DNA of 64,000 bases. Source: Candidatus Porifericomitaceae bacterium (GTDB lineage: Bacteria; Pseudomonadota; Gammaproteobacteria; Porifericomitales; Porifericomitaceae). The notes under the pieces are model-generated. The model was not told the origin of the DNA. It worked only from the letters and a program-made list of their open reading frames with translations, and ran no database searches. The DNA is taken from the NCBI GenBank assembly GCA_965212005.1, contig OZ243038.1, forward strand, positions 2,193,432 through 2,257,431. Direction: 5' to 3'. Positions 4,763 through 17,592 of this stretch are shown piece after piece. A program made the translations under genes and the position numbers. Numbering within the stretch: the first letter of the stretch is position 1; every line of letters starts with the position of its first letter.

Positions 4763-4835
4763 CTAGCCGTTACTGAATCGAGTTGGTCAAAATGAACCAT
4801 TCTGAATTCCCTGCTGGCGAGCCGAACTCGCAGAG
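4763..4835. repeat. Left terminal inverted repeat (~73 bp) of the accessory island
   Basis: ctagccgttactgaatcgagttggtcaaaatgaaccattctgaattccctgctggcgagccgaactcgcagag. Its near-perfect reverse complement occurs at 20389-20462. Confidence 0.75.
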
Positions 4836-4838
4836 CAG

Positions 4839-5400
4839 TGAACCCCAAAATTTGGATAGTAGTTTAAGGTGTAGTTTAGTCTACATGAGGAACTACACAG
4901 AGGACAAAACGAAAGAAATACTCTCCTGGGCGGAAAGCGCGGGCTGCCTTGGCGGTGACCCGTGGAGATGGCACGAGCGCCGAGTTGGCACAGAAGTTCG
5001 GAGTGCACCCCAATAGGATTACCCAGTGGAAACGCGAAGCGCTCGATGGCATGGAGGATACCTTCACCGAGACGGCAAGCGCCGCCCCGAGCCGGAGGCG
5101 GACATCAAAACGCTGCAGGCCAAGGTCGGCTAACTCATTGTAGAGCGGTATTTTTTAGCCAGGGCCTTCGAGTGATCTTCCCCCTGTTGGGTAGCCATTC
5201 AAAGAGAGACAAAATATCTTATCCTGCCGCCTCTGCCTCGAACACAGCCGGCACCAGATAATGGAGTGAACTATGTGGTCGGGTGCCAGCCTGCATAAGC
5301 TCAGAAACATAGGGCATTTTTCGGGCCAGTAGCGGTGCCAATCCACGTTGACAATGGCGAAGAGCGGCAGTAGCTTTGAATAGTCGAAGGCTGTTGTTGG
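4839..5400 (+). mobile_element. IS3-family insertion sequence remnant (orfA with frameshifts, fragment of orfB integrase core; non-functional)
   Basis: Starts TGAACCCC (IS3-type IRL tip). Translation fragments AELAQKFGVHPNRITQWKREAL (HTH), EADIKTLQAKVG and LIVERYFLARA (leucine-zipper/frameshift region), VPIHVDNGEE (DDE core-like), in different frames. Confidence 0.6.
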
Positions 5401-5419: not shown

Positions 5420-5872
5420 ATGATCGGCAGATATGGCTTGATATGCGCCGTTTTGGCATTGTTTCTGGGGGCAGGAGGGTGGTATGTGCTGGGTCCGGCA
5501 AAACTTGGGCGTGCGCCGGTGCCCGCCCCGCTGGCTGTTTCCGATTCCTCTGCCAGCGCTCCTGGCGATTCCGCCGCATCACCTTTTATAGGGCCGTCCG
5601 CTTCGAGCCCGGTCGCTTCCGGTGCGCCCGCACTTTTGTATCCGCAAAGCCCGGAAGAGCTGACGGGCATGAAGAGGCGTGCCGATCGGCTGATTGAAGA
5701 GACCGATGACTGGTTGAGCACCCTGCCGCCGTTACCCGGAGCAGGGACCGCCGCCGCTCCTGCTCCTGTCCTCAGCGATGAGGAATTTGAGCGCCGTCAG
5801 CTTGCCGTGAGCAACAAGGCGGCCCGCTTGCAGGAGCGTGCCGGGTCAGGCTCGCAGGAGGCCGGACCGTGA
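5420..5872 (+). CDS. Hypothetical membrane-anchored protein with Pro/Ala/Ser-rich low-complexity region
   Basis: N-terminal TM helix (LICAVLALFLGAGGWYVL) then PAS-rich linker. No recognisable domain. The start is uncertain. Confidence 0.35.
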   Translation: MIGRYGLICAVLALFLGAGGWYVLGPAKLGRAPVPAPLAVSDSSASAPGDSAASPFIGPSASSPVASGAPALLYPQSPEELTGMKRRADRLIEETDDWLSTLPPLPGAGTAAAPAPVLSDEEFERRQLAVSNKAARLQERAGSGSQEAGP

Positions 5873-5948
5873 TGTATCACCGCCGCTGGCGCCGTCTGTG
5901 CGGCTGGTTGTGCCATTGGGCCATGTTGGCGCCATTAGGGGTTGGCGG

Positions 5949-6395
5949 ATGAACATTATAAAAAAACGATTGTTGCTGGCCATACTTGCCATATTTGTAT
6001 TGTTTGGAACAGCGTCCTGCAGTTATCCCTTTTACATGAAAGCATCAGGTAGTTTGGATCATTCAATTTTGTTCCAGTTTTTCAAAGAGGAAAATGATGA
6101 AAAGCCATCGAAATTCGATATTACTGTGTTTACAGTTTATGGACAGACAGCCGATGCTCAATGGATCCCCATATGGCGTCTCATTGGCGGCCAGACTCTG
6201 AGTAGTATTGAGTACGGTATAAATATACAGTATAAGGGGCTTACTGAAATCGTGCCGCATAAACCACTCGCAAAGGGTAAGCAATATGAAGCGGTTGCGG
6301 CAGGTTCAGTATGGCCTAAGCCAGGGTTGGGACACGCGAGAATTGATTTCTTTTTTGATGAAGGAGGCAATTTGATTCAGGGCAGTATCAAGTAA
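5949..6395 (+). CDS. Small secreted/lipoprotein, cassette copy 1 (148 aa; MNIIKKRLLLAILAIFVLFGTASC...)
   Basis: Signal peptide with Cys at +1 region (..FGTASC). AGGGG RBS 9 nt upstream of ATG. Four paralogous copies in tandem. Confidence 0.65.
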   Translation: MNIIKKRLLLAILAIFVLFGTASCSYPFYMKASGSLDHSILFQFFKEENDEKPSKFDITVFTVYGQTADAQWIPIWRLIGGQTLSSIEYGINIQYKGLTEIVPHKPLAKGKQYEAVAAGSVWPKPGLGHARIDFFFDEGGNLIQGSIK

Positions 6396-6445
6396 TCATT
6401 ATGCCTCCAAGAACCGGCTGGTTGTTACATCTGCATGTTTAAGGA

Positions 6446-6958
6446 TTGCCCTCAGCGTTCCCTCCGGCATATCCCCGGGATGGTTGGGAATGGTCGTGTA
6501 TTTATAATGCAGCCGCTGCTTCGCGACGGGCAAGCGGCAGAGCTTTAACTGCGGATGAAATAGAGTTGCTAGAGGGGGAGGGGGTCAGTTTCGATGGGTT
6601 AGATGTTTCGAAGGTGCGGATTATCAACGGAAAATATATTCCGTTTCAGAATCGTCCCATGGCTCCGGATGGCTATATCTACTGGCCGGGTGAGTGCGGT
6701 AACTTAGCATCATGCGGTGGAGTAGGTACGGCAAGAACTTTCATCCATGAAATGACACATGTTTGGCAACACCAGCAGGGTGTCAACGTGCTCGGTAGAG
6801 GGTTCCTGCTCCAGGCTGCAAGGGGTTTGAGCCTCGGTCTTTTTGATCCATACAGCCTTAAGGGATACGATCCCAACGGTCCCAACCTACCCTTCAACAT
6901 CGAGCAGGAGGCCGAAGTAAAGAGACTCGAGTATATAAGATGGAAGAAATCTCAATGA
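6446..6958 (+). CDS. HExxH metallopeptidase-motif protein, DUF4157-like (HEMTHVWQHQ), cassette copy 1
   Basis: GKYIPFQNRPMAPDGYIYWPG...TFIHEMTHVWQHQ matches the DUF4157 pattern (HExxHvxQ) from memory. TTG start; no signal peptide. Confidence 0.55.
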   Translation: MPSAFPPAYPRDGWEWSCIYNAAAASRRASGRALTADEIELLEGEGVSFDGLDVSKVRIINGKYIPFQNRPMAPDGYIYWPGECGNLASCGGVGTARTFIHEMTHVWQHQQGVNVLGRGFLLQAARGLSLGLFDPYSLKGYDPNGPNLPFNIEQEAEVKRLEYIRWKKSQ

Positions 6959-6985
6959 TGAAAACAATATCGTAGGGGTTGGCGG

Positions 6986-7423
6986 ATGAACATTATAAAA
7001 AAACGATTGTTGCTGGCCATACTTGCCATATTTGTATTGTTTGGAGCGTCCTGCAGTTATTCATTTTCCATGAAAGTATCAGGTAATTTGGATCATTCAA
7101 TTTTGTTCCAGTTTTTCAAAGAGGAAAATGATGAAAAGCCATCGAAATTCGATATTACTGGGTTTACAGTTTATAGACATACAGCCGATGCTCAATGGAT
7201 CGTCATATGGGATCTAATTGGCAGCCAGACTCTGAGCAGTATTGAGTACGGTATAAAGTATAAGGGGCTTACTGAAATCGTGCCGCATAAACCACTCGCA
7301 AAGGGTAAGCAATATGAAGCGATTGCGGAAGGTTCAGTCTGGCCTCGAGGGCCGACGGGGAGCGCGGGAATTGTTTTCTTTTTTGATGAAGGAGGCAATT
7401 TGATTCAGGGCTGGATCAAGTAA
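6986..7423 (+). CDS. Small secreted/lipoprotein, cassette copy 2 (145 aa)
   Basis: Paralog of 5949-6395 with substitutions clustered in the C-terminal third. Confidence 0.65.
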   Translation: MNIIKKRLLLAILAIFVLFGASCSYSFSMKVSGNLDHSILFQFFKEENDEKPSKFDITGFTVYRHTADAQWIVIWDLIGSQTLSSIEYGIKYKGLTEIVPHKPLAKGKQYEAIAEGSVWPRGPTGSAGIVFFFDEGGNLIQGWIK

Positions 7424-7473
7424 TCATTATGCTTCCAAGAACCGGCTGGTTGTTACATCTGCATGTTTAAGGA

Positions 7474-7989
7474 TTGCCCTCAGCGTTCCCTCCGGCATAT
7501 CCCCGGGATGGTTGGGAATGGTCGTGTATTTATAATGCAGCCGCTGCTTCGCGACGGGCAAGCGGCAGAGCTTTAACTGCGGATGAAGTAAAGGTGGCAA
7601 AGGAGGTCTTTGACAATAAGATCGATTATTCGAAGGTGCGGATTATCGACGGAAAATATATTCCGTTTCAGAATCGTCCCATGGCTCCGGATGGCTATAT
7701 CTACTGGCCGGGTGAGTGCGGTAACTTAGCATCATGCGGTGAAGTAGATACGGCAGACACTTTCATCCATGAAATGACACATGTTTGGCAACACCAGCAT
7801 GGTGTCAACGTGCTCGGTAGAGGGTTCCTGCTCCAGGCTGCAAGGGGTTTGAGCCTCGGTCTTTTTGATCCATACAGCCTTAAGGGATACGATTCCAAAA
7901 AAGCCTTCAGCTCCTACAATATCGAGCAGCAGGGCCAAATAGCGGTAGGCATCTATCGTGGCCATTATCCAAACAACATCAACTACTGA
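7474..7989 (+). CDS. HExxH/DUF4157-like protein, cassette copy 2 (distinct N-linker and C-terminus)
   Basis: Same HEMTHVWQHQ core. Differs from copy 1 at ADEVKVAKEVFDNKIDYS and in the C-terminal 35 aa. Confidence 0.55.
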   Translation: MPSAFPPAYPRDGWEWSCIYNAAAASRRASGRALTADEVKVAKEVFDNKIDYSKVRIIDGKYIPFQNRPMAPDGYIYWPGECGNLASCGEVDTADTFIHEMTHVWQHQHGVNVLGRGFLLQAARGLSLGLFDPYSLKGYDSKKAFSSYNIEQQGQIAVGIYRGHYPNNINY

Positions 7990-8005
7990 TGCTAGGGGTT
8001 GGCGG

Positions 8006-8443
8006 ATGAACATCATAAAAAAACGATTGTTGCTGGCCATACTTACCATATTTGTATTGTTTGGAACAGCGTCCTGCAGTTATCCCTTTTACATGAAAGC
8101 ATCAGGTAGCTTGGATCATTCAATTTTGTTCCGGTTTTTCAAAGAGAAAAATGATGAAAAGCCATCGAAATTCAAGATTAATATATTTATAGTTCAGGAA
8201 CAGACAGCCGATGCTCAATGGATCGTCATATGGCATCTACAAGGCAGCCAGACTCTGAGCAGTATTGAGTACGGTATAAAGTATAAGGGGCTTGCTGAAA
8301 TCGTGCCGCATAAACCACTCGCAAAGGGTAAGCAATATCGAGCATATGCAAATGGTTCAGTATGGCCTGGAAGGGGGGGGAGCGCGGTAACTGATTTCTT
8401 TTTTGATGAAGGAGGCAATTTGATTCAGGGCAGTATCAAGTAA
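8006..8443 (+). CDS. Small secreted/lipoprotein, cassette copy 3 (145 aa)
   Basis: MNIIKKRLLLAILTIFVLFGTASC... The ORF frame is open from 7958, but a conserved ATG/RBS lies at 8006. Confidence 0.65.
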   Translation: MNIIKKRLLLAILTIFVLFGTASCSYPFYMKASGSLDHSILFRFFKEKNDEKPSKFKINIFIVQEQTADAQWIVIWHLQGSQTLSSIEYGIKYKGLAEIVPHKPLAKGKQYRAYANGSVWPGRGGSAVTDFFFDEGGNLIQGSIK

Positions 8444-8472
8444 TCATTATGCCGCCAAGAACCGGCTGGTTA

Positions 8473-9034
8473 TTACATCTGCATGTTTAAGGATTGCCCT
8501 CAGCGTTCCCTCCGGCATATCCCCGGGATGGTTGGGAATGGTCGTGTATTTACAATGCAGCCGCTGCTTCGCGACGGGCAAGCGGCAGAGCTTTAACTGC
8601 GGATGAAGTGCGGCAGAGCTTTAACTGCGGATGAAATAGAGTTGCTAGAGGGGGAGGGGGTCAGTTTCGATGGGTTAGATGTTTCGAAGGTGCGGATTAT
8701 CAACGGAAAATATATTCCGTTTCAGAATCGTCCCATGGCTCCGGATGGCTATATCTACTGGCCGGGTGAGTGCGGTAACTTAGCATCATGCGGTGGAGTA
8801 GGTACGGCAAGAACTTTCATCCATGAAATGACACATGTTTGGCAACACCAGCAGGGTGTCAACGTGCTCGGTAGAGGGTTCCTGCTCCATGCTGCAAGGG
8901 TTTTGAGCCGCGATCTTTTTGATCCATACAGCCTTAAACACTACGATCCCAACGGTCCCAACCTACCCTTCAACATCGAGCAGGAGGCCCAAGTAAAGGT
9001 CCTCGAGTATATAAGATGGAAGGAATCTCAATGA
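8473..9034 (+). pseudogene. HExxH/DUF4157-like gene, cassette copy 3, N-terminal frame broken by a 28-bp internal duplication (possible restart at ATG 8603)
   Basis: gcggcagagctttaactgcggatgaa is duplicated at 8575-8632, shifting the conserved TTG-start leader out of frame. Downstream 143 codons are intact. Confidence 0.55.
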
Positions 9035-9061
9035 TGAAAACAATATCGTAGGGGTTGGCGG

Positions 9062-9499
9062 ATGAATATTATAAAAAAACGATTGTTGCTGGCCATACTT
9101 GCCATATTTGTATTGTTTGGAGCGTCCTGCAGTTATTCATTTTCCATGAAAGTATCAGGTAATTTGGATCATTCAATTTTGTTCCAGTTTTTCAAAGAGG
9201 AAAATGATGAAAAGCCATCGAAATTCGATATTACTGGGTTTACAGTTTATAGACATACAGCCGATGCTCAATGGATCGTCATATGGGATCTAATTGGCAG
9301 CCAGACTCTGAGCAGTATTGAGTACGGTATAAAGTATAAGGGGCTTACTGAGATCGTGCCGCATAAACCACTCGCAAAAGGTAAGCAATATGATGTTGTT
9401 GTGCACGGTTCAGTCTGGCCTCGAGGGCCGACGGGGGGCACGGGATTTGTTTTCTTTTTTGATGAAGGAGGCAATTTTATTCAGGGCTGGATCAAGTAA
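9062..9499 (+). CDS. Small secreted/lipoprotein, cassette copy 4 (145 aa)
   Basis: Nearly identical to copy 2. Confidence 0.65.
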   Translation: MNIIKKRLLLAILAIFVLFGASCSYSFSMKVSGNLDHSILFQFFKEENDEKPSKFDITGFTVYRHTADAQWIVIWDLIGSQTLSSIEYGIKYKGLTEIVPHKPLAKGKQYDVVVHGSVWPRGPTGGTGFVFFFDEGGNFIQGWIK

Positions 9500-9549
9500 T
9501 CATTATGCTTCCAAGAACCGGCTGGTTGTTACATCTGCATGTTTAAGGA

Positions 9550-9861
9550 TTGCCCTCAGCGTTCCCTCCGGCATATCCCCGGGATGGTTGGGAATGGTCG
9601 TGTATTTACAAGGATACGCCTAATTATAACCTCGTCGTTATAACAGAAGATGACGGTTACGCGGCGAGGATGTTCTACGTTAAGCCAGCGTTTGGAATTA
9701 AGGAAGGCACATAAGTATATTCTGGTCAAGTCATTGGCACATATCAAAATATAGGAGACAGAAAAGGGCATAGTGGGATCACAGAGCACGTTCATGTAGA
9801 AATTCGGCTCGAAGGTAAGTTATTATATCCCACAGACATCATTCCGATTCCTGAAAACTAG
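9550..9861 (+). pseudogene. Truncated 4th HExxH/DUF4157-like gene (first 20 codons) fused to a frameshifted M23 (LytM) peptidase 3' fragment
   Basis: LPSAFPPAYPRDGWEWSCIY then ...NLVVITEDDGYAARMFYVKPAFGIKEGT*. After a +1 shift: YSGQVIGTYQNIGDRKGHSGITEHVHVEIRLEGKLLYP (M23 HxH/GxxGxxGxT-like C-terminus). Ends 1 nt before the ATG at 9863. Confidence 0.6.
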
Positions 9862-9862
9862 C

Positions 9863-10516
9863 ATGCGCAGTTTAAGATCTTTGCTCCGATTGCTCGCCAG
9901 CAGCGTGATCATCATTCATTCCGCTTTTACGTGTGCTGCCGGCATGACTGATTGTGATGCTTTGGAACTGATTTCAGGTCACTCTGATTACAATTCGCTA
10001 GTCTGTGCTGGTGTTCAGAAAGTGGAAGAGCGAAAATATGAGGAAGCGATTTCTCTATTTGAGCAGGCCCTGGCTGTTCCGCTACGTGAGTGGTCTAACT
10101 TCCTGTTATTACCCCGGCTGGCTTTGGCACATCATCTGTCCGGCTCCGGACAAAAAGCGGAAAGCGTTTTGCTGAAAGCTGAGTTGACGTTGTCGGTATT
10201 TTTGGGTTTGATGACATGCGAACAGACGGAGACGGGTTACGTTGTTCGTCGAGCGTATGAAGATTATCTCACTGGCCAGGTGGGCAATGAGGTTGCAGCA
10301 ATTATGTGTGGCAATGAATATCATTACGTATCTGAGCGGGATACACTTGAACAAGTGCTGCTGGAAGCGAAGTTGATAGAGAATTATTTTGAGATCAAGC
10401 GGCAGATCGGCTTATCTGAAGGCGATGACTCCCAGGCTGCAGTGAGGCGTGGATTGCACGTCGGTGTCGGGGCAGGCCGTTATTGTTATAACAGGCGGCA
10501 TCATGGACAGGGTTAG
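9863..10516 (+). CDS. Secreted 217-aa protein, standalone paralog of the ankyrin protein N-terminal domain (copy 1)
   Basis: Signal peptide. Shares blocks DCDAxEL, YNSLVCxG, KYEEAIxxFEQAL, LLPRLALAHHLSGS, TLSVF, NYFEIKRQIG with the ankyrin protein N-domain. Confidence 0.6.
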   Translation: MRSLRSLLRLLASSVIIIHSAFTCAAGMTDCDALELISGHSDYNSLVCAGVQKVEERKYEEAISLFEQALAVPLREWSNFLLLPRLALAHHLSGSGQKAESVLLKAELTLSVFLGLMTCEQTETGYVVRRAYEDYLTGQVGNEVAAIMCGNEYHYVSERDTLEQVLLEAKLIENYFEIKRQIGLSEGDDSQAAVRRGLHVGVGAGRYCYNRRHHGQG

Positions 10517-10783
10517 TCTTCGATACAAAGATGCTCCATCGGATCGACTCACCAGTATAACCACGCGGAGGGGTTACGCGGTGGGGCAGCTTTACGTTAC
10601 TGCGGCACCTGGCATCCAGTCTGGAGTAAGCGCAGGGGCTGGTCAAGTTATTAGCACACGTCAAGGGCGGGGAGGCCGGCATCCTGGGAGCACAGAACGC
10701 GTTCCTGCAGAGCTTGCACATAACAGTCAGGTATGTGGAGGCCGGGGCGCTGATTTCGCTTCCGTAAGTAGCAGCCTGTACAA

Positions 10784-13549
10784 ATGAAGTCCTTGCTCTG
10801 GTGGCTGGTCGGCAGCGTTATTATTATTCATTCGGCTTTCGCGCATGCTGATGATGATAAGTTTGATTGTGATGCCTGGGAGCTTTTCGGGACAAGATTT
10901 GAGGGCTACGATTATTACAATTCGCTAGTCTGTTCTGGTATTAAGAACATGGAAAAGGGGCAATATGAGGAAGCCGTTGTCCAATTTGAGGAGGCCCTGA
11001 CTGTTCCGCTAAATGAATGGCCTAACTTTATGTTATTGCCCAGACTGGCTTTGGCCTATCATCTGTCCGGTTCCAGAGAAAAGGCAAAAAGAGTTCTGCT
11101 AAAAGCGAAGCGGACGCTGTCGGTATTTACTGGTTTGATTAAATGCGAAGTAAGAGATATCCCCACTTGGAGCGATTATATTATTATGCGCCAGGCAAAT
11201 GGTATTGCCCTCTCCTCCCGCGACGGAATGTGTGGTGAGATATATTTTCCATATTATGAGAGTAAGTCTCTTGGTGCAATGCGATATGATGCGAGGGTTG
11301 TAAAGAATTATTTTGAGATCAAGCGGCAGATGGGCTTTTCCACCCCCCTTCATGAGACGGCGCAAGAGGGGCGCACAGCAGTCATCCAGACGCTGATTGA
11401 GGCAGGTGCAGACGTCAATGTGGAAGATAGCGACGGCGAGACCCCGCTTCATAGGGCGGCCCGGGAAGGCCACACAGCAGTCGTCCAGACACTGATTCGG
11501 GCAGGTGCGGACGTCAATGCGAAGGATGGCGAGAGGAAGACCCCACTTCATGGGGCGGCGCGGGAAGGCGACACAGCAGTTATCCAGATGCTGATTGAGG
11601 CAGGTGCGGACGTCCATGCAAAGTACAGAGACGGTTCCCCGCTGCATGAGGCGGCATACAAAGGCCGCACAGAAGCCATCCGTATGCTGATTAAGGCAGG
11701 TGCGGACGTCAATGCAAGGACGTCGACTGACTACACCTCGCTTCATGGGGCGGCGTACAAGGGCTACCCGGAAACCGTCCGTATGCTGATTGAAGCAGGC
11801 GCAGACGTCAATGCGGAGGATATTTTATACGGTGAGACCCCGCTTCGTTTGGCGGCAAAAAAAGAACAAACAGAAGTCATCCGCATGCTGATTGAGGCAG
11901 GCGCGGACGTCAACATGGAGGCAATAGACGGGAGCACCTGGACTCCGCTTTACTGGGCGGTACAGGGGGGGCACATAGAAGTCATCAAGGTGCTGATTGA
12001 GGCAGGCGCGGATGTCAATGCAAGGTCCAGATACGGCGAGCCCCCGCTTCATGAGGCGGTCCGGGAAGGCCTGTCAGAAGGTGTTTCTGTGTTGATTGGG
12101 GCAGGCGCGGATGTCAATGCGAGAGATGGCCGCGGCGAGACCCCGCTTCATAATGCGGTATTGAGAGGCCGGTCAGAAAGTGTTTCTACGTTGATTGAGG
12201 CAGGTGCGGACGTCAATGCGAAGAATAACGAAGGCTGGACTCCGCTTTACTGGGCGGTACAGGAGGGGCGCATAGAAGTCATCCGCATGCTGATTGAGGC
12301 AGGCGCGGACGTCAACATGGAGGCAATAGACGGGAGCAACTGGACTTCGCTTTACTGGGCGGTACAGGAGGGGCACATAGAAGTCATCAAAGTGCTGATT
12401 GAGGCAGGCGTGGATGTCAATGCGACGTCCAGATACGGCGAGCCCCCGCTTCATGAGGCGGTCCGGGAAGGCCTGTCAGAAGGTGTTTTTGTGTTGATTG
12501 GGGCAGGTGCGGATGTCAATGCGAAAGACAGCCTCGGCGAGACCCCGCTTCGTTTGGCGGCAAAAACAGAACAAACAGAAGTCATCCGCATGCTGATTGA
12601 GGCAGGCGCAGACGTCAACATGGAGGCAATAGACGGGAGCAACTGGACTCCGCTTTACTGGGCGGTACAGGAGGGGGACATAGAAGCCATCCGCATGCTG
12701 ATTGAGGCAGGCGCGGATGTCAACGCAAGGTCCAGATACGGCGAGCCCCCGCTTCATGAGGCGGCCCGGGAAGGCCACAGAGCAGTCGTCCAGGCACTGA
12801 TTCGGGCAGGCGTGGATGTCAATGCGAAAGATAGCGGCGGCGAGACCCCGCTTCATGAGGTGGCACTGTCAGGCGATCCAGAACTTGTTGATGTGCTGAT
12901 TGAGGCAGGCGCGGATGTCAATGCAAGGTCCAGATACGGTGAGACCCCGCTTCATGAAGCGGTCCAGGAAGGCCACACAGCAGTCGTCCAGGCACTGATT
13001 CGGGCAGGCGTGGATGTGAATGCGAAAGATAGCGGTGGCGAGACCCTGCTTCATGAGGCGGCACTGTCTGGCGATCCAGAACTTGTTGATGTGCTGATTG
13101 AGGCAGGCGCGGATGTCAATGCGAAAGGTAGCAGCGGCGAGCCCCTGCTTCATGAGGCGGCCCGGGAAGGCCACACAGCAGTCGTCCGGGCACTGATTCG
13201 GGCAGGCGTGGATGTGAATGCGAAAGATAGCGGCGGCGAGACCCCGCTTCATGAGGCGGCATGGTCAGGCCTGTCAGAAGGTGTTTCTACGTTGATTGAG
13301 GCAGGTGCGGACGTCAATGCGAAGGATAACGAAGGCTGGACTCCGCTTCACAGGGCGGCACAGTCAGGCGAGCCAGAACTTGTTGATGTGCTGGTTGCCG
13401 CAGGCGCAGACGTGAATGCAAAGGATGCAGACGGAGACACGCCGTTGGATAAGACAAAATCCAAAATGGATCAAATGGATCGAAAAAATGAAGAATACGA
13501 TAAGTATCGGACAGTCGTTGACTTGCTGGATAGGGCAGGCGCAAGATAA
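10784..13549 (+). CDS. Secreted ankyrin-repeat protein, 921 aa (signal peptide + ~170-aa Cys-containing N-domain + ~21 ANK repeats + Lys/Asp-rich tail), copy 1
   Basis: Signal peptide ends IIIHSAFA|HADD. Repeats are 33 aa each, e.g. TPLHxAAxEGHTAVVQALIRAGADVNAKDxxGE. Confidence 0.85.
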   Translation: MKSLLWWLVGSVIIIHSAFAHADDDKFDCDAWELFGTRFEGYDYYNSLVCSGIKNMEKGQYEEAVVQFEEALTVPLNEWPNFMLLPRLALAYHLSGSREKAKRVLLKAKRTLSVFTGLIKCEVRDIPTWSDYIIMRQANGIALSSRDGMCGEIYFPYYESKSLGAMRYDARVVKNYFEIKRQMGFSTPLHETAQEGRTAVIQTLIEAGADVNVEDSDGETPLHRAAREGHTAVVQTLIRAGADVNAKDGERKTPLHGAAREGDTAVIQMLIEAGADVHAKYRDGSPLHEAAYKGRTEAIRMLIKAGADVNARTSTDYTSLHGAAYKGYPETVRMLIEAGADVNAEDILYGETPLRLAAKKEQTEVIRMLIEAGADVNMEAIDGSTWTPLYWAVQGGHIEVIKVLIEAGADVNARSRYGEPPLHEAVREGLSEGVSVLIGAGADVNARDGRGETPLHNAVLRGRSESVSTLIEAGADVNAKNNEGWTPLYWAVQEGRIEVIRMLIEAGADVNMEAIDGSNWTSLYWAVQEGHIEVIKVLIEAGVDVNATSRYGEPPLHEAVREGLSEGVFVLIGAGADVNAKDSLGETPLRLAAKTEQTEVIRMLIEAGADVNMEAIDGSNWTPLYWAVQEGDIEAIRMLIEAGADVNARSRYGEPPLHEAAREGHRAVVQALIRAGVDVNAKDSGGETPLHEVALSGDPELVDVLIEAGADVNARSRYGETPLHEAVQEGHTAVVQALIRAGVDVNAKDSGGETLLHEAALSGDPELVDVLIEAGADVNAKGSSGEPLLHEAAREGHTAVVRALIRAGVDVNAKDSGGETPLHEAAWSGLSEGVSTLIEAGADVNAKDNEGWTPLHRAAQSGEPELVDVLVAAGADVNAKDADGDTPLDKTKSKMDQMDRKNEEYDKYRTVVDLLDRAGAR

Positions 13550-13768
13550 TTGGGACTCGTCAGTGCCAGCCGGATAAGAACGTCCGGTCATGGATATGTC
13601 CTAACCGCCTTCGATGTCCGGAAAAACTGTTTTGCTTGCAAAGTCAAAGCGAGCAACGTTGGTTGCTAGCCGTTACGGCTAGATCGGCGCCAATCCACGT
13701 TGACAATGGCGAAGAGCGGCAGTAACTTTGAATAGTAGAAGGCTTTATGCCGATTCCTGAAAACTAGC

Positions 13769-14422
13769 ATGCGCAGTTCAAGATATTTGCTCCGATTGCT
13801 CGTCGGCAGCGTGATCATCATTCATTCCGCTTTTACGTGTGCTGCCGGCATGACTGATTGTGATGCTTTGGAACTGATTTCAGGTCACTCTGATTACAAT
13901 TCGCTAGTCTGTGCTGGTGTTCAGAAAGTGGAAGAGCGAAAATATGAGGAAGCGATTTCTCTATTTGAGCAGGCCCTGGCTGTTCCGCTACGTGAGTGGT
14001 CTAACTTCCTGTTATTACCCCGGCTGGCTTTGGCACATCATCTGTCCGGCTCCGGACAAAAAGCGGAAAGCGTTTTGCTGAAAGCTGAGTTGACGTTGTC
14101 GGTATTTGTGGGTTTGATGACATGCGAACAGACGGAGACGGGTTACGTTGTTCGTCGAGCGTATGAAGATTATCTCACTGGCCAGGTGGGCAATGAGGTT
14201 GCAGCAATTATGTGTGGCAATGAATATCATTACGTATCTGAGCGGGATACACTTGAACAAGTGCTGCTGGAAGCGAAGTTGATAGAGAATTATTTTGAGA
14301 TCAAGCGGCAGATCGGCTTATCTGAAGGCGATGACTCCCAGGCTGCAGTGAGGCGTGGATTGCACGTCGGTGTCGGGGCAGGCCGTTATTGTTATAACAG
14401 GCGGCATCATGGACAGGGTTAG
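13769..14422 (+). CDS. Secreted 217-aa N-domain paralog, copy 2
   Basis: About 98% identical to 9863-10516. Confidence 0.6.
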   Translation: MRSSRYLLRLLVGSVIIIHSAFTCAAGMTDCDALELISGHSDYNSLVCAGVQKVEERKYEEAISLFEQALAVPLREWSNFLLLPRLALAHHLSGSGQKAESVLLKAELTLSVFVGLMTCEQTETGYVVRRAYEDYLTGQVGNEVAAIMCGNEYHYVSERDTLEQVLLEAKLIENYFEIKRQIGLSEGDDSQAAVRRGLHVGVGAGRYCYNRRHHGQG

Positions 14423-14689
14423 TCTTCGATACAAAGATGCTCCATCTAATCGGCTCACCAGTATAACCACGCGGGGGGGTTACGCGGTGGGGCAGCGTAA
14501 CGTTACTGCGACGCCTGGAACTCAGTCTGGAGTAAGCGCAGGGGCTGGTCAAGTTATTAGCACACGTCAAGAGTGGGGAGGCCGGCATCCTGGGAGCACA
14601 GAACGCGTTCCTGCAGAGCTTGCACATAACAGTCAGGTATGTGGAGGCCGGGGCGCTGATTTCGCTTCCGTAAGTGGCAGCCTGTACAA

Positions 14690-16456
14690 ATGAAGTCCTT
14701 GCTCTGGTGGCTGGTCGGCAGCGTTATTATTATTCATTCGGCTTTCGCGCATGCTGATGATAAGTTGGATTGTGATGCCTGGGAGCTTTACGGGACAGGC
14801 TATCATTATTACAATTCGCTAGTCTGTTCTGGTATTAAGAACATGGAAAAGGGGCAATATGAGGAAGCCATTGTCCAATTTGAGGAGGCTCTGACTATTT
14901 GGATACATGAATGGCCTAACTTTATGTTATTGCCCAGACTGGCTTTGGCCTATCATCTGTCCGGTTCCAGAGAAAAGGCAAAAAGAGTTCTGCTAAAAGC
15001 GAAGCGGACGCTGTCGATACTTACTGGTTTGATTAAATGCGAAGAAAGAGATACCACCACTTTGAGAGATTATATTATTATGCGCCAGGCGAATGGTATT
15101 GCCCTCTCTGGAGACGACGTAATGTGTGGTTCGGTATTATATTTTCCATATTATGAGAGTAAGTCTCTTGGTGCAATGCGATATGATGCGAGGATTGTAA
15201 AGAATTATTTTGAGATCAAGCGGCAGATGGGCTTTTCCACCCCCCTTCATGAGACGGCGCAAGAGGGGCGCACAGCAGTCATCCAGACGCTGATTGAGGC
15301 AGGTGCAGACGTCAATGCGGAAGATAGCGACGGCGAGACCCCGCTTCATAGGGCGGCCCGGGAAGGCCACACAGCAGTCGTCCAGGCACTGATTCGGGCA
15401 GGCGCGGACGTCAATGCGAAGGATGGCGAGAGGAAGACCCCACTTCATGGGGCGGCGCGGGAAGGCGACACAGCAGTTATCCAGATGCTGATTGAGGCAG
15501 GTGCGGACGTCAATGCAAAGTACAGAGACGGCGGCTCCCCGCTGCATGAGGCGGCATACAAAGGCCGCACAGAAGCCATCCGTATGCTGATTAAGGCAGG
15601 TGCGGACGTCAATGCAAGTACGTCGACTGACTACACCCCGCTTCATGGGGCGGTGTACAAGGGCTACCCGGAAATCATCCGTATGCTGATTGAAGCAGGC
15701 GCGGACGTCAATGCGGCGGAGCGTTACTACGGTGAGACCTCGCTTCGTTTGGCGGCAAAAAAAGAACGAACAGAAGTCATCCGCATGCTGATTGAGGCAG
15801 GCGCGGACGTCAACATGGAGGCAATAGACGGGAGCAACTGGACTCCGCTTTACTGGGCGGTACAGGAGGGGCACATAGAAGTCATCAAGGTGCTGATTGG
15901 GGCAGGTGCGGATGTCAATGCAAGGTCCAGATACGGTGAGCCCCCGCTTCATGGGGCGGTCCAGAAAGGCCTGTCAGAAGGTGTTTCTGTGTTGATTGGG
16001 GCAGGCGCGGATGTCAATGCGAAAGATAGCCGCGGCGAGACCCCGCTTTATGAGGCGGCATTGAGAGGCCGGTCAGAAGGTATTTCTACGTTGATTGGGG
16101 CAGGTGCGGACGTCAATGCGAAGAATAACGAAGGCTGGACTCCTCTTCACAGGGCGGCACAGTCATGGTGGTCAGGCCTGTCAAAAGGTGTTTCTACGTT
16201 GATTGGGGCAGGTGCGGACGTCAATGCGAAGGATAACGAAGGCTGGACTCCGCTTCACAGGGCGGCACTGTCAGGCGATCCAGAACTTGTTGATGTGCTG
16301 GTTGCCGCAGGCGCAGACGTGAATGCAAAGGATGCAGACGGAGACACGCCGTTGGATAAGACAAAATCCAAAATGGATCAAATGGATCGAAAAAATGAAG
16401 AATACGATAAGTATCGGACAGTCGTTGACTTGCTGGATAGGGCAGGCGCAAGATAA
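14690..16456 (+). CDS. Secreted ankyrin-repeat protein, 588 aa, copy 2 (in-frame loss of ~11 ANK repeats, mosaic)
   Basis: Same N-domain and C-tail. The middle repeats are absent relative to copies 1 and 3. Junction region AAQSWWSGLSKGVSTL. Confidence 0.8.
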   Translation: MKSLLWWLVGSVIIIHSAFAHADDKLDCDAWELYGTGYHYYNSLVCSGIKNMEKGQYEEAIVQFEEALTIWIHEWPNFMLLPRLALAYHLSGSREKAKRVLLKAKRTLSILTGLIKCEERDTTTLRDYIIMRQANGIALSGDDVMCGSVLYFPYYESKSLGAMRYDARIVKNYFEIKRQMGFSTPLHETAQEGRTAVIQTLIEAGADVNAEDSDGETPLHRAAREGHTAVVQALIRAGADVNAKDGERKTPLHGAAREGDTAVIQMLIEAGADVNAKYRDGGSPLHEAAYKGRTEAIRMLIKAGADVNASTSTDYTPLHGAVYKGYPEIIRMLIEAGADVNAAERYYGETSLRLAAKKERTEVIRMLIEAGADVNMEAIDGSNWTPLYWAVQEGHIEVIKVLIGAGADVNARSRYGEPPLHGAVQKGLSEGVSVLIGAGADVNAKDSRGETPLYEAALRGRSEGISTLIGAGADVNAKNNEGWTPLHRAAQSWWSGLSKGVSTLIGAGADVNAKDNEGWTPLHRAALSGDPELVDVLVAAGADVNAKDADGDTPLDKTKSKMDQMDRKNEEYDKYRTVVDLLDRAGAR

Positions 16457-16674
16457 TTGGGACTCGTCAGTGCCAGCCGGATGAGAACGTCCGGTCATGG
16501 ATATGTCCTAACCGCCTTCGATGTCCGGAAAAACTGTTTTGCTTGCAAAGTCAAGCGAGCAACGTTGGTTGCTAGCCGTTACGGCTAGATCGGCGCCAAT
16601 CCACGTTGACAATGGCGAAGAGCGGCAGTAGCTTTGCATAGTAGAAGGCTTTATGCCGATTCCTGAAAACTAGC

Positions 16675-17328
16675 ATGCGCAGTTTAAGATCTTTGCTCCG
16701 ATTGCTCGCCAGCAGCGTGATCATCATTCATTCCGCTTTTACGTGTGCTGCCGGCATGACTGATTGTGATGCTTTGGAACTGATTTCAGGTCACTCTGAT
16801 TACAATTCGCTAGTCTGTGCTGGTGTTCAGAAAGTGGAAGAGCGAAAATATGAGGAAGCGATTTCTCTATTTGAGCAGGCCCTGGCTGTTCCGCTACGTG
16901 AGTGGTCTAACTTCCTGTTATTACCCCGGCTGGCTTTGGTACATCATCTGTCCGGCTCCGGACAAAAAGCGGAAAGCGTTTTGCTGAAAGCTGAGTTGAC
17001 GTTGTCGGTATTTGTGGGTTTGATGACATGCGAACAGACGGAGACGGGTTACGTTGTTCGTCGAGCGTATGAAGATTATCTCACTGGCCAGGTGGGCAAT
17101 GAGGTTGCAGCAATTATGTGTGGCAATGAATATCATTACGTATCTGAGCGGGATACACTTGAACAAGTGCTGCTGGAAGCGAAGTTGATAGAGAATTATT
17201 TTGAGATCAAGCGGCAGATCGGCTTATCTGAAGGCGATGACTCCCAGGCTGCAGTGAGGCGTGGATTGCACGTCGGTGTCGGGGCAGGCCGTTATTGTTA
17301 TAACAGGCGGCATCATGGACAGGGTTAG
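16675..17328 (+). CDS. Secreted 217-aa N-domain paralog, copy 3
   Basis: About 99% identical to copy 1. Confidence 0.6.
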   Translation: MRSLRSLLRLLASSVIIIHSAFTCAAGMTDCDALELISGHSDYNSLVCAGVQKVEERKYEEAISLFEQALAVPLREWSNFLLLPRLALVHHLSGSGQKAESVLLKAELTLSVFVGLMTCEQTETGYVVRRAYEDYLTGQVGNEVAAIMCGNEYHYVSERDTLEQVLLEAKLIENYFEIKRQIGLSEGDDSQAAVRRGLHVGVGAGRYCYNRRHHGQG

Positions 17329-17592
17329 TCTTCGATACGGAGATGCTCCATCGGATCGGCTCACCAGTATAACCACGGGGGGATACGCGGTGGGGCAGCT
17401 TTACGTTACTGCGGCGCCTGGAACTCAGTCTGGAGTTAGCGCAGGGGCTGGTCAAGTTATTAGCACACGTCAAGAGCGGGGAGGCCGGCATCCTGGGAGC
17501 ACAGAACGCGTTCCTGCAGAGCTTGCACATAACAGTCAGGTATGTGGAGGCCGGGGCGCTGATTTCGCTTCCGTAAGTAGCAGCCTGTACAA

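Follow-up and report, generated by a model that had tools for sequence, protein, structure and literature searches.

The middle of three tandem ankyrin-repeat (ANK) genes, designated c2, is probably a genuine paralogue of a recombining multigene family, made by repeat loss and gene conversion, with a putatively Sec-exported product. It is no independent gene type, and its shortness is best explained by a change of repeat number via recombination among repeats. All positions given here are those of the window, the whole 64,000-nucleotide stretch of DNA that was analysed.

The duplicated unit is a two-gene cassette and not the ANK gene alone. Each cassette comprises a gene encoding a 217-aa exported TPR-like protein (orf217) and a gene encoding a paralogous N-domain fused to ANK repeats, and three copies with a unit of ∼3.9 kb are arranged head to tail at 9841-20381; the individual units measure 3906, 2906 and 3729 nt. 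In a blastn self-comparison, cassette 1 aligned with cassette 3 (9841-13581 with 16653-20381) at 97.5% identity over 3745 columns and with cassette 2 (9841-12262 with 13747-16162) at 95.6% identity. The features of the array and of its borders are as follows.

4763-4835, minus strand: 73-nt inverted repeat, left copy, 97% identical to the right copy
9841-13581, plus strand: cassette 1 (orf217-1 and ANK c1), from the blastn self-comparison
9863-10516, plus strand: orf217-1, 217 aa, stand-alone member of the 4-Cys TPR-like exported family (ORF and family profile)
10784-13549, plus strand: ANK c1, 921 aa, with leader, N-domain, 21 repeat units and 43-aa tail (Pfam Ank, 21 stretches)
13582-13746, plus strand: inter-cassette spacer S, copy 1, 165 nt
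13747-16488, plus strand: cassette 2 (orf217-2 and ANK c2), 1000 nt shorter than cassette 1
13769-14422, plus strand: orf217-2 (P0003)
14690-16456, plus strand: ANK c2, 588 aa, 11 repeat units, frame intact (Pfam Ank, 11 stretches)
16489-16652, plus strand: inter-cassette spacer S, copy 2, 98% identical to copy 1
16653-20381, plus strand: cassette 3 (orf217-3 and ANK c3), from the blastn self-comparison
16675-17328, plus strand: orf217-3
17593-20349, plus strand: ANK c3, 918 aa, 21 repeat units
20390-20462, plus strand: 73-nt inverted repeat, right copy

The orf217-1 product is ∼50% identical to the ANK N-domain, its paralogue, and identical to P0001, which is present in public collections. 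The final 60 nt of the first spacer are 95% identical to 5333-5392. Cassette 3 stops abruptly 9 nt short of the right inverted repeat. The inverted-repeat pair flanks the entire lower-GC island, and an IS3-type OrfA fragment at 4949-5143 adjoins its left copy. Immediately before the cassettes lies a tandem array encoding HExxH proteins and lipoproteins of 145 aa. At least two further cassette copies (the P0004 and P0005 loci) are located elsewhere on the same chromosome.

Repeat units, counted by the pattern G[AV]DV[NHD], numbered 21 in c1, 11 in c2 and 21 in c3. Overall, c2 is shorter than c1 by 999 nt (333 codons) and shorter than c3 by 990 nt (330 codons), in frame in both comparisons. Within the array, 1014 nt of c1 and c3 extending from the end of repeat 9 to the start of repeat 19 are exchanged for 21 nt in c2, a net loss of 993 nt corresponding to 331 codons or 10 repeats. 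These values bear out the in-frame loss of ∼333 codons reported in the first-pass annotation of this DNA, whereas the ∼11 missing repeats reported with it amount to a net 10 by unit count and reach 11 only if a 108-nt duplication at the junction is counted as regaining one.

12248-13261, plus strand: segment of c1 with no counterpart in c2 (repeat 9 nt 31 to repeat 19 nt 42, 1014 nt); the equivalent in c3 is 19048-20061

The sequence at the c2 junction is GCACAGTCATGGTGGTCAGG. The odd junction to which attention had been drawn, ...HRAAQSWWSGLSKGVSTL..., is real and unique, every 10- to 14-mer across 16157-16168 occurring once in the window. The repeat that spans it is a hybrid with the following parts.

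16066-16273, plus strand: 108-nt (36-codon) out-of-register tandem duplication (Tandem Repeats Finder: 1.9 copies, 94% matches, no indels)
16118-16225, plus strand: hybrid 36-codon junction repeat, a three-part chimera
16118-16147, plus strand: repeat-9/20 head of the junction repeat
16148-16165, plus strand: 18 nt of the junction repeat identical to repeat 20 (c1 13349-13366)
16166-16168, plus strand: extra TGG in the junction repeat
16169-16225, plus strand: repeat-19 tail of the junction repeat, with 2-3 mismatches

The QSW/WSG junction is the boundary between the two copies of the 108-nt duplication, and the heads of repeat 9 and repeat 20 share a near-identical 30 nt. Canonical units of 33-35 residues are found throughout c1 and c3 in the same 21-unit order, and the sole 36-residue unit is in c2. 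Repeats 1-7 of c2 are positional orthologues of repeats 1-7 of c1 and c3 (92-99% nucleotide identity) and repeat 10 corresponds to repeat 20, while repeat 8 matches repeats 8 and 19 equally well; these two are themselves 88% identical, and c2 repeat 8 is a patchwork of both states. Repeat-19-type and repeat-20-type sequence persists in c2 at 97-100% identity.

These details bear on the very improbable reading that the short copy is an assembly artefact, the middle gene being truly full length with its repeat array partly collapsed by the assembler. Repeats of 99 nt, in blocks that recur every 198, 303 and 402 nt at 88-95% identity, make the array prone to collapse, and residual indel errors are possible in the assembly as glnE in the window is split into two overlapping ORFs. 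However, collapse merges identical k-mers in register and makes no new sequence, whereas the c2 junction has 9 extra in-frame unique nt and lies within a duplication with copies that differ at 9 sites. A jump from the head of repeat 9 to the head of repeat 20 would not give a repeat-19 tail followed by a second repeat 20. Furthermore, ∼30 private substitutions and a private codon are found in c2 upstream of the junction, and the source contig is chromosome-scale (2.54 Mb).

Comparison of c2 with its neighbors at parent-informative sites, at which c1 and c3 differ, revealed a mosaic. The N-domain of c2 has the c3 state at 25 of 27 sites, in agreement with its earlier assignment to copy 3. The accompanying assignment of the early repeats to copy 1 stands only for a patch of six sites (below); repeats 1-3 are mixed, with four sites shared with c3 and two with c1, and repeats 4-9 are private, with ∼30 substitutions at sites where c1 and c3 are the same. 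A private GGC codon is located at 15529-15531.

15161-15276, plus strand: c2 the same as c1 and different from c3 at 6 of 6 parent-informative sites; last ∼30 N-domain residues and first ANK helices

The 3' end of c2, from the repeat-19 tail to the 3' UTR, has the c1 state at 9 sites versus 0, and the upstream orf217 region of cassette 2 is mixed (8 versus 6 sites). The segment counts of 25:2, 0:6 and 0:9 are reflected in a clustering of site patterns, with 14 runs in 60 informative sites, matched in 1 of 100,000 shuffles (runs test, P∼1e-5); for the three-class site string the observed value was matched in 0 of 100,000 shuffles. Over repeats 9-19, c1 and c3 are separated by merely 9 substitutions, a divergence of 0.8%.

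The site patterns, in which the nearest relative changes from segment to segment, show gene conversion or unequal crossing-over among the copies. Every copy is a mosaic, since repeats 4-9 of c2 are private and c1 and c3 appear homogenised with each other. As the same chromosome carries two more cassette paralogues, conversion donors may also be located beyond the window. The recombination among the copies proposed in the first-pass annotation is supported by this mosaic and by the sharp switches of nearest relative, but the junction does not have the form of a simple homologous crossover with the repeats in register. A single unequal crossover between two older copies, with the middle gene as the hybrid, was rejected as the full explanation since it explains only part of the site patterns: it fits the c3-like N-domain and the c1-like tail and fails for the mixed orf217 region and the private divergence of repeats 4-9. 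Programmed variation, whether by a diversity-generating retroelement with its adenine specificity or at an invertible or simple-sequence contingency locus, was also rejected. All four bases are affected by the substitutions private to c2. Domains of a reverse transcriptase or a recombinase were not found among the island ORFs, where the sole mobile-element signal is an IS3-type HTH fragment, and no short-unit simple-sequence tract was detected in or before the ANK genes with Tandem Repeats Finder.

The formation of c2 could have proceeded as follows. The similar repeat pairs 8/9 and 19/20, which have near-identical heads, would have recombined with the loss of about 11 repeats. Slippage or illegitimate recombination at short homologies would next have duplicated 108 nt in tandem and out of register, adding one non-canonical 36-residue repeat. 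Since all steps are multiples of 3 nt, the reading frame would have been preserved. Mutual homogenisation of c1 and c3 across repeats 4-19 would have followed the formation of c2. The structure of the junction suggests that at least two events were needed, one of them illegitimate, although the patchwork in repeat 8 and the differences between the copies of the 108-nt duplication at 9 of 105 nt obscure their order and number.

The direction of change was most probably loss in c2, based on the 21-unit order and canonical units shared by c1 and c3 and on the repeat-19 and repeat-20 sequence retained in c2. The reverse, that c2 is the ancestral short form and that c1 and c3 gained 10 repeats by internal duplication which then spread by gene conversion, appears distinctly improbable. 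Repeats 9-19 of c1 and c3 are all close paralogues of other repeats (10 and 11 are 95% identical to 6 and 7, repeat 12 is 88% identical to 5, repeats 14, 16 and 18 are about 90% identical mutually, and 15 and 17 are 95% identical), from which it follows that the long form grew by internal duplication at some time, and the near-identity of c1 and c3 over this region is as expected after recent transfer. However, to turn c2 into the long form, an insertion would have to excise the aberrant QSW precisely and leave canonical 33-residue units to its left and right, and several duplications and a transfer bypassing the middle copy would be needed as well. The repeat-19-type and repeat-20-type sequence of c2 is expected from an ancestor already having repeats 19 and 20.

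Of the signal peptide, N-domain and tail that copy 2 had been said to retain, the N-domain and tail were found, together with a hydrophobic leader as putative signal peptide; an N-terminal hydrophobic leader, an N-domain of ∼183 aa and a C-terminal tail of 43 aa are common to c1, c2 and c3. The c2 protein is organized as follows.

14690-15238, plus strand: leader (aa 1-22, MKSLLWWLVGSVIIIHSAFAHA) and N-domain (to aa 183), nearest copy c3
15239-16324, plus strand: ANK array (repeat comparison)
16325-16456, plus strand: C-terminal capping half-repeat and charged helical tail, nearest copy c1

In the leader, K2 is followed by a hydrophobic core (residues 4-19), AFA/AHA motifs lie ahead of residue 23, and a helix is predicted at residues 2-20. 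The N-domain carries the family-invariant cysteines C28, C46, C117 and C146. The proteins class as ankyrin-repeat proteins (Pfam Ank PF00023 / Ank_2 PF12796): matches to Pfam Ank were above the curated threshold, with 11 stretches in c2 (E 2.3e-95) and 21 in c1. In the AlphaFold2 model of c2, a helix pair recurs every ∼33 residues between 185 and 539, and pLDDT there is mostly 88-96. Both helices of the junction unit (485-491 and 498-506) are kept in the model and the loop is longer, with a pLDDT of 68 at residues 491-500 compared to ∼92 on either side. The ANK stack is thus predicted to be continuous as one solenoid. A clear Shine-Dalgarno sequence was not found upstream of the c2 start, and a promoter/terminator scan returned fewer sites than in shuffles. 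The 267-nt region between orf217 and the ANK gene contains open frames on both strands and was ruled out as an RNA element since its RNA structure is not unusual (z = +1.18). Rfam and tRNA scans of the window were empty.

Possible diversification is indicated by pN/pS, which stands at 1.4-1.9 for the N-domain and at 2.2-3.1 across repeats 4-8 (c1-c2 comparison: one-sided binomial P = 0.03). The residues that vary are biased toward canonical ANK binding-surface or loop positions (12/58 versus 27/241, Fisher P = 0.048), a borderline enrichment that rests partly on one 4-residue patch. The pN/pS ratios above 1 could be the result of relaxed constraint or multi-nucleotide conversion patches, not positive selection. 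A reading of c2 as a functionless gene in decay, a leftover of recombination that is pseudogenised except for its open frame, is improbable, even though the junction repeat is non-canonical, the private changes in repeats 4-8 are mostly non-synonymous (28 versus 3 synonymous, against c1) and a c2-specific promoter-like or Shine-Dalgarno-like signal was not found. The gene retains an uninterrupted frame of 588 codons, all four invariant cysteines and every nearly invariant N-domain residue, and the repeats score as Ank in 11 stretches and are predicted to stack normally. Moreover, the same excess of pN/pS is found in the N-domains of c1 and c3, so the pattern is not special to c2.

The orf217 products and the ANK N-domains fit, over ∼180 residues, the profile of a family with four invariant cysteines and two TPR motifs, for which there is no Pfam or NCBIfam model. 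The profile matched 267 representatives at E≤1e-3, 139 at E≤1e-10 and 17 at E≤1e-30, and C28, C46, C117 and C146 are invariant across 73 family sequences. Family members are almost entirely stand-alone proteins of ∼185 aa, an architecture shared by orf217 and not by c1-c3, and no fusion to ANK repeats was found among the best 150 representatives. Many members have lipoboxes or signal peptides, and one from Parvibaculum is encoded in a housekeeping neighborhood. A Foldseek search of the N-domain model against the PDB matched only the two TPR motifs, with no E-value ≤0.001. Only the window's own orf217 was returned by a word-indexed protein search with the N-domain, and no relatives of the N-domain were found in GTDB genome representatives, JGI metagenomes or viral contigs. 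Exact look-ups of c1, c2 and c3 gave no match in a collection of 15 billion proteins or its contig index, and look-ups of metK, P0001 and P0004 gave none in the contig index. A search with the full-length c2 protein returned generic ANK matches only (30-49% identity). A scan with the AhcY of this bacterium gave distant matches, to uncultured Gammaproteobacteria at no more than 78% identity, in keeping with a deep gammaproteobacterial lineage.

The products would be Sec-exported ANK solenoids of two lengths which bind other proteins. Export is suggested by the hydrophobic leader and by the lipoboxes or signal peptides of many N-domain family members, and the conserved cysteines suggest an oxidising compartment. 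Length and surface variation of the products would be generated by recombination. Most likely they would be displayed on the surface or secreted, and would act on a eukaryotic host or grazer. A less likely but appreciable possibility is that the proteins act in the bacterium's own envelope, as periplasmic scaffolds or as immunity-type binders tied to the adjacent toxin/immunity-like array. This possibility derives from the N-domain family, the members of which are mostly stand-alone lipoproteins or periplasmic proteins of ∼185 aa with the Parvibaculum member in its housekeeping setting, from the tandem array of HExxH proteins and 145-aa lipoproteins immediately upstream of the cassettes, and from the finding of no secretion system among the window ORFs scanned. 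However, the ANK genes are paired with orf217 and not with a toxin gene, and the lower GC content and IS remnants of the island are like those of imported accessory genes. Exported ANK-rich proteins are, in addition, strongly associated with host-associated lifestyles (PMC3932732). Matches to defence systems obtained with PADLOC are merely generic ANK matches and were not counted as evidence.

More speculatively, and on balance doubtfully, the array together with the at least two further copies would constitute a recombination-driven diversification locus for exported ANK solenoids that vary in length and surface, with selection favouring amino-acid changes. If so, unequal crossing-over and gene conversion among the paralogues would keep generating variants, a set of which the bacterium could use in its interaction with a eukaryotic host or predator, and the lineage-specific fusion to the 4-Cys TPR domain would serve as an export or anchoring module.

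The shortening of c2 is ordinary evolution of repeat genes, not a new kind of system, and no new mechanism is revealed by the locus. Nevertheless, it provides a fully resolved case of length change in a repeat gene within one genome, combining a putative contraction of ∼11 repeats, a 36-codon duplication and patchwise conversion, with a reading frame that survived every change. The 4-Cys TPR-like exported domain joined to ANK repeats is a new domain combination for the catalogue of eukaryote-like bacterial proteins, and the locus draws attention to a widespread, uncharacterised family of small exported proteins. Practical value would follow only if the organism is host-associated and the length variants bind different targets.

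The type IV-secreted Ank effectors of Legionella, Coxiella, Anaplasma and Ehrlichia bind host proteins, are often encoded by multigene families with variable repeat numbers, and, without a Sec leader, are delivered from the cytoplasm by a Dot/Icm or VirB system by means of C-terminal signals. The proteins described here are likewise bacterial ANK-repeat proteins of a multigene family with variable repeat number but differ in having a Sec-type N-terminal leader and conserved cysteines, and no type IV secretion genes were found among the window ORFs scanned.

Secreted ANK proteins are present in sponge symbionts and their phages, among them ANKp of the 'Ankyphages' (bioRxiv 10.1101/608950, and Nguyen et al. 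2014, cited there). Phagocytosis is reduced by such signal-peptide-bearing ANK proteins (bioRxiv 10.1101/608950). The ANKp architecture of an N-terminal signal peptide and ANK repeats with no transmembrane domain would be shared by the proteins described here, and for both an action outside the bacterial cytoplasm, on a eukaryote, is proposed. In contrast, the likeness in sequence is limited to the generic ANK motif (best ANK matches 30-49% identical), c1-c3 are much longer with 11-21 repeats and have an extra N-domain, and no phage context was found for the cassettes in the viral-contig scan.

A close parallel in the mode of change is with the ANK genes of Wolbachia, for which repeat-number polymorphism is attributed to homologous recombination and illegitimate recombination at short direct repeats, as in WD0550, WD0766 and the prophage gene WD0633 (Siozios et al. 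2013, PMC3563639). As in Wolbachia, homologues differ in repeat number (here 21, 11 and 21), intragenic recombination is significant, and a breakpoint with an illegitimate junction lies inside the array (here the 108-nt duplication and the extra TGG). The variation in Wolbachia is between orthologues of strains, whereas here it is between adjacent tandem paralogues of one genome; unlike Wolbachia, the producer is a gammaproteobacterium, and the proteins combine a Sec-type leader with a 4-Cys TPR-like N-domain, an arrangement not described for the ANK genes of Wolbachia.

The three tandem ankyrin-repeat (ANK) genes, designated c1, c2 and c3, are each preceded by a 217-residue ORF (orf217), and self-comparison revealed that the repeated unit is the entire two-gene cassette.

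Cassette array, window positions.
10784-13549, + strand: ANK c1, ORF of 921 aa
14690-16456, + strand: ANK c2, ORF of 588 aa
17593-20349, + strand: ANK c3, ORF of 918 aa
9863-10516, 13769-14422 and 16675-17328, + strand: orf217 copies (217-aa ORFs), one ahead of each ANK gene

The region 9841-13581 was 97.5% identical to 16653-20381, and 9841-12262 was 95.6% identical to 13747-16162, with cassette periods of 3906 and 2906 nt. The orf217 product shares ~50% identity with the first ~183 residues of the ANK proteins (the N-domain), for which Pfam returned only sub-threshold TPR signals. Pfam detected 21 Ank repeats in c1 and 11 in c2; c3 has 21 by homology. Between adjacent cassettes lies a 165-nt spacer (13582-13746 and 16489-16652, 98% identical). 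It is absent from both flanks of the array, which is therefore not explained by plain tandem duplication of one single-copy locus. An open frame of 111-112 codons (14355-14693; also 10449-10787 and 17261-17596) with a TGA overlapping the ANK ATG (ATGA) occupies the gap between each orf217 and its ANK gene, and a long antisense frame is likewise open. The gap frame had no family match and its RNA structure was not unusual (z = +1.18); the gap is probably a non-coding GC-rich spacer.

Repeat units were counted by cutting each protein wherever the G[AV]DV[NHD] motif occurs, which gave 21 units for c1, 21 for c3 and 11 for c2. At the DNA level, repeats 1-7 of c2 match those at the same positions in c1 and c3 (92-99% identity), c2 repeat 8 is equally close to repeats 8 and 19, and c2 repeat 10 is the equivalent of their repeat 20 (97-98%). 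In c2, 21 nt (16148-16168) take the place of the 1014 nt from nt 31 of repeat 9 to nt 42 of repeat 19 (c1 12248-13261; c3 19048-20061), a net loss inside the array of 993 nt, equal to 331 codons or 10 units. With small indels elsewhere, c2 is 333 codons shorter than c1 and 330 shorter than c3. Thus, the ~333 codons reported in the first-pass annotation describe the whole-gene difference from c1 rather than that from c3 or that within the array, and the large internal loss stands at a net 10 units (21 vs 11), not ~11.

The order of the 21 units is identical in c1 and c3, with canonical unit lengths, and the sole aberrant unit is in c2, where repeat-19-type and repeat-20-type sequence is retained. 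Conversion of c2 to the long form would call for an insertion exactly deleting three extra codons, making loss in c2 a more economical reading of the sequences than gain in c1 and c3. The long form had itself grown earlier by duplication within the array: repeats 10/11 share 95% identity with 6/7, repeat 15 is 95% identical to 17, repeats 14, 16 and 18 share ~90% mutual identity, and the array shows periods of 198, 303 and 402 nt.

At 36 codons, the junction unit of c2 (16118-16225) is longer than the usual 33 and is composed of four pieces. It opens with the 30-nt head common to repeats 9 and 20, with one mismatch to c1 repeat 9 and two to repeat 20. An 18-nt stretch (CACAGGGCGGCACAGTCA) comes next, matching repeat 20 of c1 and c3 exactly and absent from repeats 9 and 19; an extra TGG follows, and the last 57 nt are the repeat 19 tail with 2-3 mismatches. 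All 10-14-mers across 16157-16168 were unique in a k-mer scan of the window. Tandem Repeats Finder detected a 108-nt period at 16066-16273 (1.9 copies, 94% matches, 0 indels), which places between QSW and WSG the boundary of two copies of an out-of-register 36-codon unit; this unit begins with the second helix of a repeat and ends with the first helix of the following one. A single in-register crossover cannot yield both the chimeric junction and the 108-nt out-of-register duplication, and the junction takes at least two events. One plausible first event would be recombination of pair 8/9 with the similar pair 19/20, removing ~11 repeats, with a subsequent 108-nt duplication regaining one. Nine of 105 sites differ between the two 108-nt copies, and repeat 8 of c2 is a mix of repeat-8 and repeat-19 states, which obscures the order of events and later conversions.

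Collapse of repeats during assembly, which would make the short c2 an artefact, is very improbable in light of these features. It would join identical sequence in register, without novel in-frame nucleotides, and would yield neither a diverged 108-nt duplication nor the ~30 private substitutions and private codon (15529-15531) upstream; furthermore, the source contig is chromosome-sized. The short c2 is a real feature, rightly spotted in the first-pass annotation, with details corrected here.

The three cassettes were aligned and each variable site was classed by which two copies agree.

Site classes by region: c2=c3; c2=c1; c1=c3 (c2 private).
Upstream orf217 and spacer: 8; 6; 11
ANK N-domain (c1 10784-11250): 25; 2; 5
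N-domain end and first ANK helices (c2 15161-15276): 0; 6; 1
Repeats 1-3: 4; 2; 2
Repeat 4 to repeat-9 head: 5; 7; 30
Repeat-19 tail to 3' UTR: 0; 9; 6

The parent-informative sites formed 14 runs over 60 sites, a clustering equalled in 1 of 100,000 shuffles, which bears out the earlier proposal of recombination among the copies. Likewise, the proposed match of the c2 N-domain to c3 was confirmed (25 c3-like vs 2 c1-like sites). The proposed match of the early repeats to c1 holds for the short patch 15161-15276 only (6 c1-like vs 0 c3-like sites), whereas repeats 1-3 are mixed (4 c3-like vs 2 c1-like) and 4-9 mostly private; the strongest c1 likeness of c2 is at the 3' end. A c3-like left and c1-like right would be the pattern expected in a new middle copy after one unequal crossover between two older copies. 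As a full account this model was rejected; it leaves the private divergence of repeats 4-9 and the mixed upstream part unexplained. Divergence between c1 and c3 is 5.5% in the N-domain and only 0.8% over repeats 9-19, indicating later homogenisation between the outer copies. In the leader of the second orf217, two private substitutions at 13803 and 13805 (GCCAGC, AS, to GTCGGC, VG) make it identical there to the ANK gene leader, a change that may stem from micro-conversion between the two paralogues within one cassette.

The orf217 90%-identity cluster has five members, all on one 2,535,744-bp contig, of which three are the window copies. The other two, P0004 (217 aa) and P0005 (190 aa), are encoded nowhere in the window, indicating at least two more cassette-type loci elsewhere on the chromosome (at least five in the genome), which may be donors of the private variants of c2.

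The ANK part of c2 is predicted to be a standard solenoid, with an AlphaFold2 pLDDT of ~90 across the repeats; the modeled junction unit keeps both helices and has a longer loop (pLDDT 68 at residues 491-500). The N-domain starts with a putative Sec-type leader (MKSLLWWLVGSVIIIHSAFAHA). A profile built from the six window copies was searched against 1.84 billion representatives and matched 267 proteins at E<=1e-3, nearly all stand-alone, ~185 aa, and many with a lipobox or leader. Four cysteines are invariant across 73 aligned members, and the model obtained with this alignment (pLDDT 84) contains two TPR motifs, a beta-hairpin and a long C-terminal helix, with PDB matches confined to the ~66-residue TPR part. 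No Pfam or NCBIfam model was found for the family, which appears to comprise widespread ~185-aa exported proteins without a curated model. The Parvibaculum member sits amid housekeeping genes, and one member, P0012 (family handles P0008-P0156), has two tandem domain copies. ANK repeats occurred in none of the best 150 of the 267 matches, and fusion to ANK repeats therefore looks lineage-specific. A full-length c2 search returned no relatives closer than generic ANK matches (30-49% identity).

Between copies, pN/pS ranged from 1.4 to 1.9 in the N-domain and from 2.2 to 3.1 in repeats 4-8, where c1 and c2 differ by 28 non-synonymous vs 3 synonymous changes (one-sided binomial P = 0.03); among orf217 copies, 12/12 pairwise differences are non-synonymous. 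Variable residues lean to canonical ANK binding-surface or loop positions (12/58 vs 27/241, P = 0.048), a count that takes in the misaligned repeat 3 indel and one 4-residue patch. The excess and the lean are suggestive of diversification, and fit conversion patches or relaxed constraint just as well.

The cassettes sit in a lower-GC island (45-57% vs ~60%) with an L,D-transpeptidase gene on one side and metK-ahcY-metF on the other.

Features of the island, window positions.
4763-4835 (- strand) and 20390-20462 (+ strand): 73-nt inverted repeat, 97% identical, bracketing the ~15.6 kb island
4949-5143: IS3-type OrfA fragment at the left end, 64-aa ORF, transposase HTH PF01527
Ends at 6395, 7423, 8443 and 9499: 145-aa lipoproteins (MNIIKKRLLL...SC)
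6446-6958, 7474-7989 and 8603-9034: 143-171-aa proteins with HEMTHVWQHQ

The right inverted-repeat copy starts 9 nt past the end of cassette 3. The 64-aa ORF scored 24.4 bits against PF01527 (cutoff 24.1, partial) and is an IS remnant adjoining the left copy; near it, 5333-5392 is 95% identical to the final 60 nt of the spacer between cassettes (13685-13744, 16591-16650). From 5838 to 9861, lipoproteins alternate with HExxH proteins in a tandem array of ~1030-nt period, in which the intergenic and start sequence at 9500-9608 recurs at 6396, 7424 and 8444 (97-100% identity). The array proteins had zero Pfam or PADLOC matches, and by analogy the array resembles orphan toxin/immunity cassettes. 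A perfect 28-nt tandem repeat (8582-8635, 1.9 copies) lies just ahead of the third HExxH gene and extends into its start. The fourth unit (9500-9861) is truncated, with its frame broken by stops, and its C-terminus, ending ...GHSGITEHVHVEIRLEGKLLYPTDIIPIPEN*, is weakly Peptidase_M23-like (E 0.03). The ANK cassette repeat has its left boundary (~9841-9844) within the last codons of this unit. The remainder of the window contains ordinary Gram-negative housekeeping genes. There, glnE (glutamine synthetase adenylyltransferase) is present as two overlapping ORFs in different frames (32002-33582 and 33444-34886), both with GlnE and GlnD_UR_UTase domains, reflecting either a frameshifted gene or an assembly indel error.

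No hallmarks of programmed variation systems were found at the cassette locus among the substitutions, island domains and tandem tracts checked, and no secretion system is present in the window. Unlike type IV-style Ank effectors, the ANK proteins carry a putative Sec-type leader, which argues against their being effectors of that kind. Exported, signal-peptide ANK proteins of sponge symbionts and their phages lower phagocytosis (10.1101/608950), and by analogy those of the window may function similarly. In Wolbachia, repeat-number polymorphism of ANK genes arises via homologous and illegitimate recombination at short direct repeats (PMC3563639). The locus described here works alike, through recombination-driven change in repeat number, and c2 adds to the known kind of bacterial ANK genes varying in repeat number.
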